DNA of 64,000 nucleotides. Source: an uncultured Thiotrichaceae bacterium (GTDB lineage: Bacteria; Pseudomonadota; Gammaproteobacteria; SZUA-229). The position numbers and the translations under genes were made by a program. Position 1 is the stretch's first letter; each line of letters opens with the position of its first letter. The DNA lies in NCBI GenBank assembly GCA_964600755.1, contig CAZRKQ010000050.1, forward strand, positions 4,926 through 68,925. The letters run 5' to 3'. The notes under the pieces are model-generated. The model was not told where the DNA came from, made no database searches, and saw only the letters and a list, made by a program, of their open reading frames with translations. This document shows, piece by piece, positions 11,674 through 60,744 of the stretch.

Positions 11674-11774
11674 TATTGATCAGGCAAACAGCCAGGCATT
11701 ACTGAAGATATTATAAACTCAACCAACAGTTATCAGGTTCGGCATTGCCTGTGAAATGCACAGACCATAAATAA

Positions 11775-11815
11775 AAACCCCTGCAAAACAATGTCTTACA
11801 GGGGTTTTGTTATTG
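11775..11815 (-). terminator. Rho-independent terminator of the HU-like gene
   Basis: On the minus strand, CCCCTGtaagacattgttttgCAGGGG is followed by TTTTTATTTAT. Confidence 0.6.
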
Positions 11816-11846: not shown

Positions 11847-12269
11847 TTACTTGGCAGCCATATCCTTCAGCGCTTTCAGAGGCAGCACTTTAACAACCTT
11901 GCGTGCCGGCTTCGCAGATACGTCCATGGTTTCACCTGGACGGAACGGATTTGGAACATTCTTGCGTGCCTTGGTTGCCGGCTTCTTGTTAACTTTAACC
12001 TTGAGCAAACCTGGCAGCTTGAACTCGCCTGCACCACGACTCTTGATGTGGCCTTCGATTACATCTGAAAGTGAATCGAAAACTTGCGCAACATCTTTTC
12101 TTGCAAGTCCGGTATATTCAGAGATGTGAGCATACAGTTGAGATTTTGTGTAGCCCGCGCTGATTGCCTTGACTGATTTTGCTGGAGCTGCTTTTTTTGC
12201 TACGCGTTTTTTAGCAACTTTCTTCTTGGCAACTTTCTTTTTAGCAACTTTTTTCTTTACTGGTGACAT
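11847..12269 (-). CDS. HU/IHF-family DNA-binding protein with N-terminal lysine-rich (KKVAK)n histone-H1-like extension
   Basis: 140 aa. N-terminus is [31 protein letters not shown]. The C-terminal ~95 aa has the HU-fold pattern (YTKSQLYAHISEY..L..KDVAQVFDSLSDVI...GEFKLPGLLKVKV...NPF.PGE). Confidence 0.8.
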   Translation of the reverse strand: MSPVKKKVAKKKVAKKKVAKKRVAKKAAPAKSVKAISAGYTKSQLYAHISEYTGLARKDVAQVFDSLSDVIEGHIKSRGAGEFKLPGLLKVKVNKKPATKARKNVPNPFRPGETMDVSAKPARKVVKVLPLKALKDMAAK

Positions 12270-12412
12270 TGTTTTTAGACCCTTTGGTGTTTGGTGGAAA
12301 TTCTGTGGGCAATTTTTATACCTTTATCTCAAGAATGTAAATACATTTTTTGAAAAAAAAGCGTTTTTTCCCGAAAAAAACAGTAAAAATTGATATTAGT
12401 AACGAAATTTTA

Positions 12413-25034: not shown

Positions 25035-25478
25035 ATGAGAAAAACATGGGTAATTGTTGCCGACAACAGTCGAGCACGCATTTTCACTTCAGAAACTCCA
25101 TCATCAGCGTTAATAGAAGTAGACTCTATTGTTCATCCGGAAGCCCGTATGCATGATCGCGATATCACCAGCGATTTACCGGGCCGTGGCTCTGGCACAG
25201 GCGGATCACGTCATTCTTATGAGACTGAAACAGATGCGAAGGATTATGAGAACCTGGGTTTCGCCAAACGCATTGCCGGTTTTCTTGATGAGGCGCGTAA
25301 AAGTGACAAATTCAAGCAGTTGATTATTGTTGCCGCACCGTCATTACTGGGCAACCTGCGCAGTGGATTGAATCATCAAACCAGAAAATTGGTCAGCCTG
25401 GAACTGGACAAGAATCTTTCACAACTTAGTCCTGATGAAATCCGCAAGCACATGCCGGAATTTCTTCCGAACAAGTGA
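25035..25478 (+). CDS. Host_attach (PF10116) family protein
   Basis: 147 aa. WVIVADNSRARIF...DLPGRG...LIIVAAPSLLGNLRSGL matches the conserved layout of the 'host attachment protein' family. Confidence 0.6.
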   Translation: MRKTWVIVADNSRARIFTSETPSSALIEVDSIVHPEARMHDRDITSDLPGRGSGTGGSRHSYETETDAKDYENLGFAKRIAGFLDEARKSDKFKQLIIVAAPSLLGNLRSGLNHQTRKLVSLELDKNLSQLSPDEIRKHMPEFLPNK

Positions 25479-25500: not shown

Positions 25501-25876
25501 TGAACCACAAAGGTCACAGGGGTTCACAGAGAATGTTTTCTGTTGTCCTGCAGCAGCAAGGCTTCACAAATGAAATAAACTGTAGTGGTCTGTAATTGAT
25601 CTTACAAACAGCGTCAGATTTACTCATGTCATATTTTTCATCTGAATAGCTGTATTTGCACATTCGAAGATAATCATAAAGCTTAATTATCCACAGATGA
25701 ACGCAGATAAACACAGATAAAGTTGTTTTTAAGCTTTTATACATCTGTGTTTATCTGCGTTCATCTGTGGACTTTTTTAAAGACCACCTAGTTTAAATCA
25801 GACAATTACTGTCAGATCAAGTCACGACCAGCACAAATAAACTCTGTGTCACTCTGTGACCTCTGTGGTTCAAATC
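25501..25876. mobile_element. MITE-like non-coding element with ~30-bp imperfect terminal inverted repeats and a central perfect 28-bp palindrome
   Basis: Left end TGAACCACAAAGGTCACAGGGGTTCACAGAG (25501-) and right end CTCTGTGTCACTCTGTGACCTCTGTGGTTCA (-25876) are inverted copies. Internally, CCACAGATGAACGCAGATAAACACAGAT (25691-25718) pairs perfectly with ATCTGTGTTTATCTGCGTTCATCTGTGG (25743-25770). TTATCCACA (25687-25695) matches the DnaA-box consensus. Confidence 0.5.
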
Positions 25877-25879
25877 CTT

Positions 25880-27700
25880 TTAAATAGCATCTGCCACTGT
25901 TTCAAGGGCAATCTCGTGTTCACGTTTTTCCTGTTGTAGTTGCCATAGCTGCGCATACAGGCCCTCCTGTGCCAGTAATTGCTGATGTGTCCCCTGTTCC
26001 ACGATTGAACCCTTGTCCAGCACGAGTATATTGTCAGCATCAATGATCGTTGACAGTCGATGCGCAATCACCAGCGTGGTATGTTTCATCGCAACCTCTT
26101 TAAGTGAAGACAGTATGGACTGCTCCGATCGCGAATCCAGCGAGGATGTTGCCTCATCGAATACCAGAATCCGCGGATTTTTCAAGATAACTCGAGCTAT
26201 AGCAATGCGTTGTTTCTCACCGCCTGAAAGTTTCAAACCACGTTCGCCTACGATAGTCTCATACCCATCCGGCAGGCTTTTAATAAATTCATGAATGTTC
26301 GCCACCCTGGCTGCGTGTACAACATCATCCATACTCGCGTCTTGATTGGCGTAATGGATATTGTGGAAAATCGACTGGTTAAACAGCACCGTATCTTGCG
26401 GAACGATACCTATATTTTCCCGCAGGCTATCCTGAGTAACATCACTTATGTCCTGATCATCGATAAGGATGCGACCTGAGTCTGCTTCATAAAAGCGAAA
26501 CAACAGCCTGGACAATGTCGACTTGCCAGCGCCTGACGGGCCAACCACAGCAACCTTTTTGCCGGGTGGTATTTCAAAGCTGACATCGTCAAGCACCTGC
26601 CTGTCAGCATTATACGAGAACGATAGATGTTCTACACACACATGCGCATCGCTGACTTTCAATGGCCCGGCCTGGCCCTTATCTGATATATCCAGCCTGG
26701 TATCAAGCAAGCGCATCATCATGTCCATATCTGCCAGTGAGTATTTAAGCGCACGATATATAACACCAAGAAAGTTCAATGGTAAAAACAGCTGTAGCAT
26801 CATGGTATTTACCAGCACGAGATCACCCAGTGTCATGGTTCCATTTACGACACCCTGTGTTGCGAAAACCATCATGAAAGTTACGCCAACCGCGATCACC
26901 GCTCCCTGACCGAAATTAAGCAGTGACATTGAGTTCTGGCTTTTAACCGCGGCGTTTTCCCAGTCTTTCAGTGTCTCGTTATAACGTGATAACTCATAAT
27001 CTTCATTGTTGAAATACTTGACCGTCTCGTAATTGAGCATGCCATCGACCGCGTAGGTGTTGGCCTCCGATTCCAGCGAGTTCATCTTCAACCTGTAATG
27101 CATGCGCCATTCAGTAACTGACAGGGTAAAAAGGATGTATATAACAACAGTAATAAAGGTAACGAAGGCAAATCTAGCTTCATACTGCCCGAGCAGAATC
27201 GCAGCAACCAGGACAAATTCCGCAGCCGTTGGAATGATATTGAATACGAGGTAATTTAGAATCGAACTGAGGCTGCTAGTACCGCGCTCAAGATCCCGGA
27301 TTATGCCACCTGTTTTACGATCAAGGTGGTAGCGTAATGATAAGGAATAGAGGTGACTGAGAACCCGATTCGAAATACCGCGCATCGCATGGTAACGAAC
27401 CCTGGCAAATATTGCGTCGCGTAATTCGTTAAACAGGCTGCTCGTCATCCGCAATGCACCGTATGCTAACAACAGCACGACGGGCAGGACAAGTGTGCCA
27501 TTTTCACTGTCCAATCCATCAATGATTTCTCTCAGTACCAGTGGCATACCAACAACAGCCAGCTTGGACAGGACCAGGCAAGCCAAGGCTATTAATACCC
27601 TGCCCCTGAATTCCCAGACAAAAGGAAGCAGCCTTTTAAGATTCTTCCAGTCTTTTCTGTCAGAATGCGGCTTACTGGTTTGGCGATGTACCATAATCAT
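25880..27700 (-). CDS. ABC transporter, fused permease/ATP-binding protein (ABCB/Atm1-HMT1-like exporter)
   Basis: 606 aa. N-terminal 6-TM domain. Walker A GPSGAGKST, signature LSGGEKQRIAIAR, Walker B ILVFDEATSSLD. Confidence 0.9.
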   Translation of the reverse strand: MIMVHRQTSKPHSDRKDWKNLKRLLPFVWEFRGRVLIALACLVLSKLAVVGMPLVLREIIDGLDSENGTLVLPVVLLLAYGALRMTSSLFNELRDAIFARVRYHAMRGISNRVLSHLYSLSLRYHLDRKTGGIIRDLERGTSSLSSILNYLVFNIIPTAAEFVLVAAILLGQYEARFAFVTFITVVIYILFTLSVTEWRMHYRLKMNSLESEANTYAVDGMLNYETVKYFNNEDYELSRYNETLKDWENAAVKSQNSMSLLNFGQGAVIAVGVTFMMVFATQGVVNGTMTLGDLVLVNTMMLQLFLPLNFLGVIYRALKYSLADMDMMMRLLDTRLDISDKGQAGPLKVSDAHVCVEHLSFSYNADRQVLDDVSFEIPPGKKVAVVGPSGAGKSTLSRLLFRFYEADSGRILIDDQDISDVTQDSLRENIGIVPQDTVLFNQSIFHNIHYANQDASMDDVVHAARVANIHEFIKSLPDGYETIVGERGLKLSGGEKQRIAIARVILKNPRILVFDEATSSLDSRSEQSILSSLKEVAMKHTTLVIAHRLSTIIDADNILVLDKGSIVEQGTHQQLLAQEGLYAQLWQLQQEKREHEIALETVADAI

Positions 27701-36833: not shown

Positions 36834-36943
36834 TGCAATCCTCCTTTTTCAATATTGGACAAGTGTAATTTAGTACCTTGAGGGAGACATGACTTGACCA
36901 TATACGCCAATCGCTTAACAGGAAAAACAGGTTCTAGATACTA

Positions 36944-36980
36944 GGAACTGGGGACTGGGGACTGGGGACTGGGGACTGGA
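36944..36980. repeat. Heptanucleotide tandem repeat (GGGGACT)x5, preceded by TACTAGG
   Basis: Read directly: ctaggaactggggactggggactggggactggggactgga. Same family as the repeats at 43301-43337 and 48023-48052. Confidence 0.85.
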
Positions 36981-43183: not shown

Positions 43184-43300
43184 GTAGTTTCCCCTGCTAA
43201 ACTGATTTTATCTGATGAACTTTATGATCAAATCTAACAGGTATATGACTAAACATAACCGGATCTTGTTCAGGGATGTTCAGACACCATATAGTAACAA

Positions 43301-43337
43301 CCTGGCCCCTAGTCCCTAGCCCCTAGTACCTAGTACC
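43301..43337. repeat. Heptanucleotide tandem repeat (CCCTAGT/CCTAGTA variants), immediately downstream of the DUF503 gene
   Basis: cctggcccctagtccctagcccctagtacctagtacctg. Same family as the repeats at 36944-36980 and 48023-48052. Confidence 0.85.
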
Positions 43338-43342
43338 TGAAT

Positions 43343-49300: not shown

Positions 49301-50314
49301 TTATCTATTTTTTGTTTCCAGGGCTTTGATGCGTTTTGCCAGTTCATCCAGTTGTTTTATACGGGCAAGTATTCTTCGCCACTTGCTAGCTTCAAGCACG
49401 GGTATCACAGCAGCATACATTCCGGGTTGCTTGATTGAGGCAGCCACATTCGACCTGCCGGCGAGGATAACATTATCAGTGATTTCAATATTGTCACGTA
49501 TACCCACACCACCGCCGATGATACATTTCTTACCAATTTTGACAGAGCCGGCAGCGCCGCTTTGGCCGGAGATCGTAGTATGTTCACCAATATGGTCATT
49601 GTGACCAAGCTGAATCAGGTTATCTAATTTCACTCCGTCTTCAACGATCGTATCACCAATCGCGCCACGATCGATGGAGGTATTGGCACCAATTTCTACA
49701 TCATTACCAATTCTGACAGTACCCAGTTGAGGCACTTTCATGTATGAGTCCTGGTCCCAGACAAAACCGAAACCATCAGCTCCGATAACAACACCGGAGT
49801 GTAAAATATTGTTATCACCTACAGTACAACCCTCCCCTATTGTTACATTGGCAAAGAGTCGTGTATTAGCGCCAACTTTGACATTCTTTTCTAATACACA
49901 TCCTGGTGATATCCATGTACCAGGCCCGACTGATACACCACTTTGGATTACAGCACATGCTTCGACCCTTACAGATGAATCAACTTCAGCATCATCTGCA
50001 ATAACAGCATGCGGTGAAATCCATGGTTCCACTGCGGGCAATGGATTCAGTAGTAACGCAATTTTTGAAAATACGACACGTGGATTTTCAGCTATCAGGG
50101 CTGGCTTATCACAGCCATCCAGCATTTTTTCAGTGATGATCACTGCAGATGCATCAGTCGTTTTCAGGAGTCTTGTATATTTTGTATTTGAAACAAAGAC
50201 AATACTACCTTCTTCTCCACTGCAGATATCTGCAACTTTTTCGATATTGATATCACCGGACCCAGACAGGTCGGCCCCGGTATGCTCAGCTAATTCGAAA
50301 AGCTTGTATCCCAT
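49301..50314 (-). CDS. lpxD: UDP-3-O-(3-hydroxyacyl)glucosamine N-acyltransferase
   Basis: 337 aa. Hexapeptide-repeat LbH fold with the LpxD N-terminal domain. Confidence 0.95.
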
Positions 50315-59721: not shown

Positions 59722-60744
59722 TCAAGCTTTTTTCTTGACGGCCTTCTTCTTGGCAACTTTCTTTTTAGCTACCTTCTTCTTGGCGACTTTCTTTTTAGCC
59801 ACTTTATTCTTTGGCGCTGCAGCTGCCTTCTCTGTGACTTCTTCAACAGCTTCCTCGGCAACTTCTTCAACTACAACTTCTGCTGGAGCTTCAGCTTCTA
59901 CTTTTTCAGCCGCTTCTTTTACTGCTTCTACTTTTTTTGCAACAGGTGCTTTTTCCTCGGCTGCTTGTACGTGAGCCTTGGCTGTTTTCTTCACAGGCGC
60001 CTTCTTTACTGACACCTTTTTCTTTGGTGCTGTTTCTTCGACTTCTTCAGGCTGAATTACAGCAGAAGCACGTCCTTCAATGACAGCGTCGGCGATTCCC
60101 TGTGAATATAGTCGAATCGCCTTGATAGCATCATCATTACCGGGAACAATGTAATCAATGCCATCGGGTGAATTATTTGTGTCAACAATGCCGAATACTG
60201 GAATGCCGAGCTTGTTAGCTTCATTTATGGCAATCTCTTCATGGCCAACATCTATTACAAATAATGCATCTGGCAGACCTTTCATGTTCTTGATACCGCC
60301 AAGCACCTTCTCAAGCTTTTCCATTTCACGTTTCAAACCAAGCGCTTCTTTCTTGGTAAGCCTGGCAAAGCCCTCACCGGTAGACATTTCCTCTAGATCC
60401 ATCAACCTTTGTATAGACTGGCGAATAGTTTTGTAATTGGTCAGCATGCCGCCGAGCCAGCGATGGTTTACATATGGCATTCCACAACGCTGTGCTTCTT
60501 CCATCACCGTGTTGCGTGCTGCGCGTTTTGTGCCAACAAATAAAACAGTGCCTCGATTAGAAGCAATCTTGCCAATGGCATTTACAGCGTCGTTGTAAAG
60601 TGGCAGGGTTTTTTCAAGGTTGACGATGTGGATCTTGTTGCGGGCACCAAAAATGAATTCTGACATTTTTGGGTTCCAGAAACGGGTCTGGTGACCAAAA
60701 TGAACGCCGGCTTCGAGCATCAGGCGCATAGATACGTTAGACAT
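59722..60744 (-). CDS. rpsB: 30S ribosomal protein S2 with ~100-aa C-terminal extension (acidic E/A/V-rich region followed by a (KKVAK)n lysine-rich tail)
   Basis: 340 aa, versus about 240 aa for a typical S2. S2 core: [19 protein letters not shown]....VFVGTKRAA. The extension is ...[16 protein letters not shown]...[52 protein letters not shown]. Confidence 0.95.

Follow-up and report, generated by a model that had tools for sequence, protein, structure and literature searches.

Analysis of the 64,000-nt stretch of DNA considered here (the window), which comes from a contig of an uncultured Thiotrichaceae bacterium, revealed two genes with a tandem array of the type AARAARAARGTNGCN coding for a lysine-rich protein terminus; both genes lie on the minus strand. 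The first gene, at positions 11847-12269 (minus strand; ORF list and Pfam), belongs to the HU family (Bac_DNA_binding) and encodes a protein of 140 aa with a lysine-rich N-terminal tail. The second, at positions 59722-60744 (minus strand), is rpsB, encoding ribosomal protein uS2 of 340 aa; it lies in the conserved map-rpsB-tsf-pyrH neighbourhood, with the methionine aminopeptidase gene upstream and the genes for EF-Ts and UMP kinase downstream. A third K-rich array was absent from the window, as judged by a six-frame scan and by the termini of 60 ORFs. An LpxD-like ORF (49301-50314) with a basic C-terminus has an ordinary helical end and no repeat.

The N-terminus of the HU-like protein is MSPV(KKKVA)3KKRVAKK. 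The first-pass annotation, which had given MSPV(KKKVA)4KK, correctly recognized a KKKVA array, but overstated its regularity: three units are perfect and one is imperfect, instead of four. The repeat occupies residues 5-26, and 14 of the first 30 residues are K or R. The DNA coding for this array (codons 4-26) spans 12192-12260 (minus strand), with the three perfect units at 12213-12257; Tandem Repeats Finder (TRF) reported a period of 15 and 3.1 copies at 12211-12257. The HU-fold core, residues 41-137 (11859-12149, minus strand), was delimited by a Pfam match to PF00216 (48.2 bits against a gathering cut-off of 22.4, E = 1.3e-12, profile positions 2-88 of 90). Across 44 homologues this core is almost unchanging, including N107 P108 and P111 G112 E113 of the arm; the segment KNVPNPFRPGE is invariant in all 44 and resembles the R-N-P-x-T-G type of motif, the candidate site of the proline found at the tip of the DNA-binding arm in HU. 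BLASTP against E. coli HupA gave no alignment, and the best sequence matches in the PDB were viral histone-like proteins, 9js5 and ASFV pA104R (about 3e-5). The candidate assignment to IHF alpha (NF001401) was rejected, with 18.3 bits against a cut-off of 111. An AF2 monomer model of low mean confidence (pLDDT 59.6) comprises helices at residues 42-53, 57-78 and 131-138 and strands within 83-91, residues 1-41 being modelled as coil with pLDDT of about 50. Foldseek found no significant match between this low-confidence model and the PDB; the four best matches were HU-family structures, but with E of at least 0.2. The profile match identifies the core as a very divergent gammaproteobacterial member of the HU family. 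The gene is preceded by a promoter-like site at 12312-12341 (minus strand), a consensus match only (9/12) that is not above shuffle expectation, and is followed by a terminator-like hairpin with a 16-pair stem and a T-run at 11774-11808 (minus strand).

The S2 protein is recognized by PF00318 (E = 3e-95) and TIGR01011 (336.7 bits against a cut-off of 76.3), with the Pfam uS2 domain at residues 9-224 (60073-60720, minus strand). Solved S2 chains align to residues 1 to about 230-242 of this protein, and none aligns past residue ~278. The C-terminal extension, previously put at ~100 aa, ends exactly as the first-pass annotation had quoted it and is somewhat longer, about 111-115 aa. Its three parts follow in the order basic patch, acidic linker, basic array. 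The first basic patch, residues 239-257 (59974-60030, minus strand), has a net charge of +8 and is conserved in the clade, with P240, K243, V244, K247 and A249 at least 90% conserved. The E/A/V-rich linker, residues 258-312 (59809-59973, minus strand), has a net charge of -8; its length and sequence vary in relatives, where duplicated blocks occur, and TRF reported a period of 15 at 59890-59936. The terminal basic array, residues 313-340 (59725-59808, minus strand), is NKVA(KKKVA)3KKKAVKKKA, with a net charge of +16 and a 5-residue period (autocorrelation 0.96); residues K318-K329 are at least 90% conserved, unlike the linker. At 59742-59811 TRF detected both a period of 15 (75% matches) and a period of 30 (90% matches). 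Periodicity is about 4 residues in the linker, compared with 5 in the basic array, and the idea that the linker is a K-to-E mirror of that array was rejected, since the local score was 6 and the null gave 6.4 (P = 0.73). Modelling of S2 by AF2 with 55 close homologues gave a poor result even in the core (pLDDT 45.6), with little information on the tail. Both models render the tails as coil with low confidence (45.6 for S2 and 59.6 for the HU-like protein), which at most suggests that the tails are disordered.

Two described kinds of S2 also carry about 100 or more extra C-terminal residues, and in both cases the protein of the window matches the core only. The sunset-domain variant NF051451 (382 positions) was ruled out: the score of 275 bits is far below the cut-off of 710, and the match stops at profile position 316, short of the C-terminal domain (positions about 317-382). 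The fusion of uS2 with an unknown domain, PRK12311 (NF008966; 334 positions), was ruled out likewise, with 312.7 bits against a cut-off of 526 and a match restricted to profile positions 4-230. The S2 tail alone matched no NCBIfam model, whether of the sunset type or of any other tail, and NCBIfam scans of K-rich tails and proteins from other taxa revealed no such tail model either. Literature searches returned no relevant paper on a 'sunset domain' and none on a lysine-rich C-terminal extension of S2.

Distribution and conservation of the two tails

The HU-like protein has 7395 homologues, nearly all of 130-145 aa. The best 120 of these 7395, mostly from uncultured Gammaproteobacteria, are 83-99% identical to it, and every one of the 120 has a (KKKxx)n N-terminus, the units of which drift to KKKVT, KKKTA or KKKAV. 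The same N-terminal array is also found on HU-like proteins of Sedimenticolaceae and of another gammaproteobacterial MAG with core identities of 44-46%. Nearly all of the best 120 S2 homologues likewise carry the three-part tail, the few exceptions being truncated or having a minimal array, and for both tails conservation extends over more than 100 homologue clusters of uncultured Gammaproteobacteria. In a sister clade the S2 tail has the same plan, with the hexapeptide KKKAA[VP] as its array unit.

Copy number varies by whole units in both proteins. Tails of HU orthologues measure 23, 28, 33 or 38 residues, i.e., they differ in steps of 5 aa, and S2 homologues have one to six array units within extensions of 50-130 aa. 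Together with the 30-nt period of the S2 array and the repeated blocks within the acidic linker, this variation supports slipped-strand change, which the first-pass annotation had proposed, as a process acting within each gene. The comparison of repeat copy number that it had suggested found whole-unit differences among relatives, but none between the near-identical strains sampled. The sequences show that the tails are conserved, terminal and polycationic, that they change by whole units, and that they are translated, with purifying selection acting on the peptide.

Of 37 metagenomic S2 proteins that are more distant, none has the K array, and a short acidic tail, probably ancestral, forms the C-terminus of most of them. 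The S2 tail of the window had been called unusual in its own right. This description applies outside its clade, given the 37 distant proteins and the absence of any solved chain aligning past residue ~278, but within a large clade of uncultured Gammaproteobacteria such a tail is the rule. The three-part tail is common in metagenomes, is confined to one clade and seems undescribed in the literature; it defines a clade-restricted uS2 variant with a conserved basic-acidic-basic extension of 50-130 residues. This clade of widespread Gammaproteobacteria is known from metagenomes, and the same organisms consistently possess an H1-tailed HU-like protein.

Lysine-rich tails in other proteins and taxa

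Both tails consist of a terminal tandem K/A/V(P)-rich unit with strong positive charge, and on this basis they can be placed in the known class of lysine-rich, H1-like low-complexity tails; the earlier description of histone-H1-like tails on nucleic-acid-binding proteins is upheld for an HU-family protein (PF00216) and for uS2, each with K-rich repeats. As it stands, the pair is an ordinary example of a known phenomenon. The HU-like protein resembles HU of Deinococcus radiodurans in combining an HU fold with a K/A-rich low-complexity N-terminal tail; it differs in its KKKVA unit, which has no proline, in its very divergent core, and in being known here from sequence. As described in PMC3553676 (also PMC9900698), the PAKKA-type tail of D. 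radiodurans HU changes both binding-site size and binding mode. The presence of one lysine-rich unit on two unrelated nucleic-acid-binding proteins of a single genome has a parallel in mycobacterial Hlp/HupB and Ku, although the mycobacterial tails are C-terminal, have a PAKKA unit, belong to Actinobacteria, and have Ku rather than a ribosomal protein as the second carrier. The tails of Ku, Hlp and D. radiodurans HU alter binding-site size and promote DNA end-joining, and in Ku the tail lowers DNA affinity (PMC3553676); the same work proposes a repeated evolution of lysine-rich, low-complexity tails on DNA-binding proteins that are not related to each other.

Lysine-rich tails resembling H1 are also found on the mosquito ribosomal proteins RpS6 and RpL23a, and these were concluded to be independent in origin (Hernandez and Fallon 2007, as cited in PMC11764897). 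The mosquito tails differ from the S2 tail in being carried by eukaryotic cytoplasmic proteins, other than S2, and in having no acidic linker. In composition and repeat logic both tails of the window further resemble stand-alone H1-like proteins (chlamydial Hc2, PF07382; the Burkholderia type, NF038053; AlgP), which differ in being repeat proteins throughout, whereas the array here is an appendage of ~25 residues on a folded domain. Neither tail of the window matched PF07382, NF038052 or NF038053 significantly, but these models describe whole repeat proteins, and the missing match is no argument against a comparable mode of action; longer KKKVA arrays from other taxa match H1-like models weakly, below the cut-off. 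Finally, a polycationic tail on a regulator or an enzyme is known from Streptomyces DdbA, an H1-like DksA fusion, and from the lysine repeats of actinobacterial TopA (PMC3643593, PMC7398561), which differ from the HU/S2 case in carriers and taxa.

A scan with a degenerate KKKVA-type pattern, using one genome per species, recovered at least 120 stretches. The matches listed come from Bdellovibrionota, Planctomycetota, Myxococcota, several gammaproteobacterial families, Patescibacteria and archaea. Among them are terminal tails on DksA (in Woeseiaceae), TopoI (in Luteimonas), GyrB/ParE, HPF, CarD, SWIB and HU, tails on enzymes, namely PPi-phosphofructokinase (PFK), PPDK, aconitase and polysaccharide deacetylase, and stand-alone Hc2-like proteins made of such arrays; no S2 and no member of the source clade is among these listed matches.

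DNA likeness of the two arrays

In nucleotide sequence the HU and S2 arrays (12193-12258 and 59747-59812) form one repeat family, with 82% identity over 66 nt. Their best ungapped match covers 46 of 51 nt, and all five mismatches fall at third codon positions. An exact 26-mer, GCTAAAAAGAAAGTTGCCAAGAAGAA, is present in the HU array at 12220-12245 and in the S2 array at 59744-59769 (both minus strand), with a second S2 copy at 59774-59799 that has one mismatch; zero occurrences of this 26-mer are expected in shuffles of the window. The near-identity of the two DNA stretches that had attracted attention is therefore real.

The significance of this likeness was assessed with codon nulls, in which both peptides were kept fixed, synonymous codons were redrawn, and local alignments were scored with +1 for a match and -2 for a mismatch. 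The observed HU-versus-S2 score is 36. Redrawing codons from the usage of the window (40 long ORFs) gave a mean of 26.3 +/- 4.4 (P = 0.028), and permuting the synonymous codons of each array gave a mean of 25.1 (P = 0.009). With the codon usage of the highly expressed S2 core, EF-Ts and HU core, the mean rose to 27.3 (P = 0.040), and with the KKK patterns and V/A codons of unrelated mid-GC KKKVA arrays it reached 28.0 (P = 0.058). The length of the longest exact match, the 26-mer, has P = 0.0095 under the simple codon-usage null, and codon identity over the whole overlap (11 of 21 codons) is not significant (P = 0.22-0.47). All these P values refer to statistics picked post hoc, with the match already seen, and they weaken as the nulls become more realistic. 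The likeness is far above that of random DNA and marginally above that of two genes coding for the same peptide (P = 0.01-0.06): about three quarters of it follows automatically from the peptide, and the rest is marginal.

Unrelated arrays share some of these codon features. In mid-GC arrays AAA AAA AAA was used for none of 176 KKK triplets, as against about 19% expected from window usage, and a two-unit (30-nt) alternation of codons is common in unrelated arrays of other taxa. Iterated AAA codons lead to ribosome sliding (PMC4363877), which provides a selective reason for convergent codon patterns. KKK would then be confined to few codon patterns because runs of AAA are avoided.

Besides the window, HU and S2 genes were found together on one contig in two cases only, one near-identical to the window and one in which the co-location is inferred. 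In the near-identical strain both genes lie on one 55-kb contig with arrays identical to those of the window, which makes this pair uninformative. In the relative with about 80% nucleotide identity (HU P0049 and S2 P0214, each with a longest contig of 105,923 nt and, given this equal length, apparently on one contig), the HU-versus-S2 score is 15, below random expectation, the S2 array codons being AAG AAA AAG GTT GCC / AAG AAA AAA GTA GCC. A further candidate pairing did not hold: HU P0018 is from GCA_975971325.1, and S2 P0152 and P0154 are from other MAGs.

Across lineages, the codon pattern of the window HU array recurs in three orthologues (L218, L219 and L223) with cores 80-88% identical, and third-position identity to the window gene is 0.78-0.91 in the array and 0.58-0.71 in the core. 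The two-unit S2 pattern AAA AAG AAA GTT GCC / AAG AAr AAG GTA GCw is also found in three S2 lineages (L138-L140). Within the 30-nt period of S2, each lineage repeats its own lysine codons, which change from one lineage to the next, as fits turnover inside the array; in particular, the triplet of the alternate units is AAG AAG AAG in both copies in the window and AAG AAA AAG in both copies in L139 and L140. Most of the differences that separate orthologous arrays are synonymous. Scores average 24.8 (sd 6.1) over a matrix of 6 HU by 7 S2 lineages; the window pair, with 36, equals window HU against L138 S2 (36) and is exceeded by L218 HU against L138 S2 (39). Concerted evolution between the two genes, i.e., a same-genome excess at synonymous sites, was not detected among the few lineages sampled. 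These comparisons indicate that the codon pattern of each array is inherited with its own gene and that the within-genome pair is not special.

Origin and possible roles of the tails

We consider it likely that the two tails are separate and vertically inherited, that array turnover is intragenic, and that the DNA likeness stems from the shared peptide together with limits on codon choice. Slippage during replication, or unequal exchange, would let each array expand, contract and homogenise inside its own gene, 15 or 30 nt at a time, with selection maintaining the polycationic peptide. Three sources would then account for the DNA likeness: the same pentapeptide, the existence of only two lysine codons, and the avoidance of AAA runs. 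Striking DNA identity between unrelated genes can thus arise without exchange, nearly all of it being explained here by the same low-complexity peptide, two lysine codons and A-run avoidance.

The first-pass annotation had instead pictured a cassette recombining between the two genes. Ectopic gene conversion or recombination, recent or ancestral, that copied about 30-50 nt from one array to the other is an unlikely source of the likeness, even though several observations speak for it. The arrays have an exact identity of 26 nt, a length close to the lower limit for RecA-dependent exchange in E. coli. They also share the codon order GCT AAA AAG AAA GTy GCC AAG AAG AAr, P = 0.0095 was obtained for the exact match with the simple null, and the local score lies above every null (P = 0.009-0.058), so that an ancient exchange of about 45 nt between the arrays keeps a small probability. 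The same statistics are, however, post hoc and weaken under realistic nulls, and scores as high or higher were obtained across lineages (36 for window HU with L138 S2, 39 for L218 HU with L138 S2). Divergent codon usage in related genomes, which the first-pass annotation itself had named as evidence that would weaken recombination, was found in the ~80%-identity relative, where both genes are apparently on one contig and score 15. Both codon patterns are common to orthologues, and so nothing recent has been exchanged; the S2 codons AAG AAG AAG that complete the 26-mer are specific to the window lineage, and the HU pattern is older. A crossover between the direct repeats, moreover, would remove 47.5 kb including essential genes. 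With identity largely forced by the peptide, codon patterns inherited with each gene and no within-genome excess, the cassette was not borne out.

As regards function, under separate vertical inheritance both tails are probably polycations without fixed structure, which would contribute non-specific affinity for nucleic acids. By analogy with Deinococcus HU and mycobacterial Hlp, the HU tail would make the DNA site larger or act as a bridge between DNA segments. uS2 is located on the solvent side of the 30S subunit, adjoins the mRNA exit and anchors the N-terminal helix of bS1 (PMC6133939, PMC5737520; PDB 4toi). A flexible S2 tail of 111 residues could therefore extend to rRNA or mRNA in the area of the mRNA exit and of the platform where bS1 docks, with the acidic linker serving as a spacer or an internal counter-charge. 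Provided that ribosomes carry the S2 tail, it adjoins the mRNA exit and the S1 docking site and would offer a natural case for studying disordered polycationic extensions on bacterial ribosomes. A much more specific scheme, in which the S2 tail is a functional ribosome appendage whose polycationic end tethers mRNA or rRNA at the mRNA-exit/bS1 platform or mediates ribosome clustering or hibernation, the acidic segment acts as a gate, the tail arose together with the HU tail as a lineage-wide polycation strategy, and the arrays occasionally exchange via the 26-mer, is unlikely as a whole.

Still less probable is that the tails are neutral, functionless low-complexity expansions, by-products of slippage on A-rich DNA that are tolerated at protein termini. 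Wide variation of copy number and of the acidic linker among relatives would be expected of such expansions, as would the similar arrays on PFK, PPDK, aconitase and polysaccharide deacetylase, enzymes with no obvious need for a nucleic-acid-binding tail. Neutrality is nevertheless difficult to reconcile with the retention of the arrays in almost every one of the 240 closest homologue clusters examined, with the mostly synonymous differences between orthologous arrays, and with conservation of at least 90% in K318-K329 and the first basic patch but not in the linker. The avoidance of A-runs in codon choice also implies that the arrays are translated under selection, and comparable tails change DNA binding experimentally (PMC3553676). 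Finally, although the source organism is uncultured and known solely from assemblies, an assembly or chimera artefact of the metagenomic contig can practically be dismissed as the origin of the shared repeat, as three independent assemblies (JGI, ENA and Logan) have the same sequence at the HU locus, both loci recur with 1-2 nt differences on another contig of 55 kb, and hundreds of independent homologues possess the tails.

Synonymous sites and lysine codons of the KKKVA arrays

Comparison of the HU-like gene (11847-12269, minus strand) with three loci of its orthologues (L218, L219 and L223) revealed that synonymous-site conservation in the N-terminal KKKVA array, encoded at 12192-12260, ranges from 0.78 to 0.91, whereas values for the HU core are lower, between 0.58 and 0.71. 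The higher synonymous conservation of the tail array may be caused by constraints acting on the 5' coding region or by the avoidance of A-runs. Among the matches listed from a scan of one genome per species (at least 120 KKKVA-array stretches, L004-L123), none of the 176 KKK triplets in arrays of mid-GC genomes was encoded as AAA AAA AAA, and in genomes with less than 40% GC this combination accounted for only 5% of the array KKK triplets.

KKKVA arrays fused to other proteins

Among the matches listed, KKKVA arrays were also found fused to metabolic enzymes of other taxa (L053, L063, L102, L068, L075 and L009). The PPi-type phosphofructokinase carries an N-terminal array in at least three gammaproteobacterial MAGs, pyruvate phosphate dikinase bears the array C-terminally and aconitase N-terminally, and a polysaccharide deacetylase possesses one as well. 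In the same set of matches, two Woeseiaceae MAGs (L035 and L037) harbor a K-rich N-terminal region of ~150 amino acids on DksA, which recalls Streptomyces DdbA. One ribosome hibernation factor (S30AE/HPF) ends in a KKKVA tail, and one CarD protein of the Pelagibacteraceae has its array at the N-terminus (loci L097 and L096 cover HPF and CarD).

Tail architecture of ribosomal protein S2

In a sister clade of S2 proteins (metagenome loci L143-L157), the basic-acidic-basic plan of the tail is retained, with a terminal array composed of the hexapeptide KKKAA[VP], the lysine triplets of which are encoded by AAA AAG AAA and AAG AAA AAA in alternation. The acidic linker of the window's S2 contains a weak 15-nt tandem repeat (59890-59936) with units of the KVEA[EV] type, and its charged residues recur with a period of ~4, versus 5 in the basic array. 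The S2 linkers of relatives contain duplicated blocks, larger than this 15-nt repeat.

HU start codon and intergenic repeats

Upstream of the HU ATG, the frame is free of stop codons at 12270-12302, and across the start it reads KGLKTMSPV. Some homologues in the databases, P0036 and P0053 (both 151 amino acids), are annotated with a start farther upstream, MFHQTPKGLKT; most homologues share the shorter start.

Elsewhere in the window, the gap between the ORFs 25035-25478 and 25880-27700 harbors a near-perfect inverted repeat with ~30-nt arms (CCACAGATGAACGCAGATAAACACAGATAAAG ... CATCTGTGTTTATCTGCGTTCATCTGTGG), and after it a ~10-nt motif, CTCTGTG(A/T)C, occurs three times; together, these intergenic elements occupy positions 25688-25770 and 25841-25867. 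The window also contains short tandem arrays of heptamers at two sites, (ACTGGGG) x 4.7 at 36940-36979 and (CCCTAGT/CCCCTAG) x 4.6 at 43300-43338; both appear to be intergenic, and their motifs are rough reverse complements of one another.
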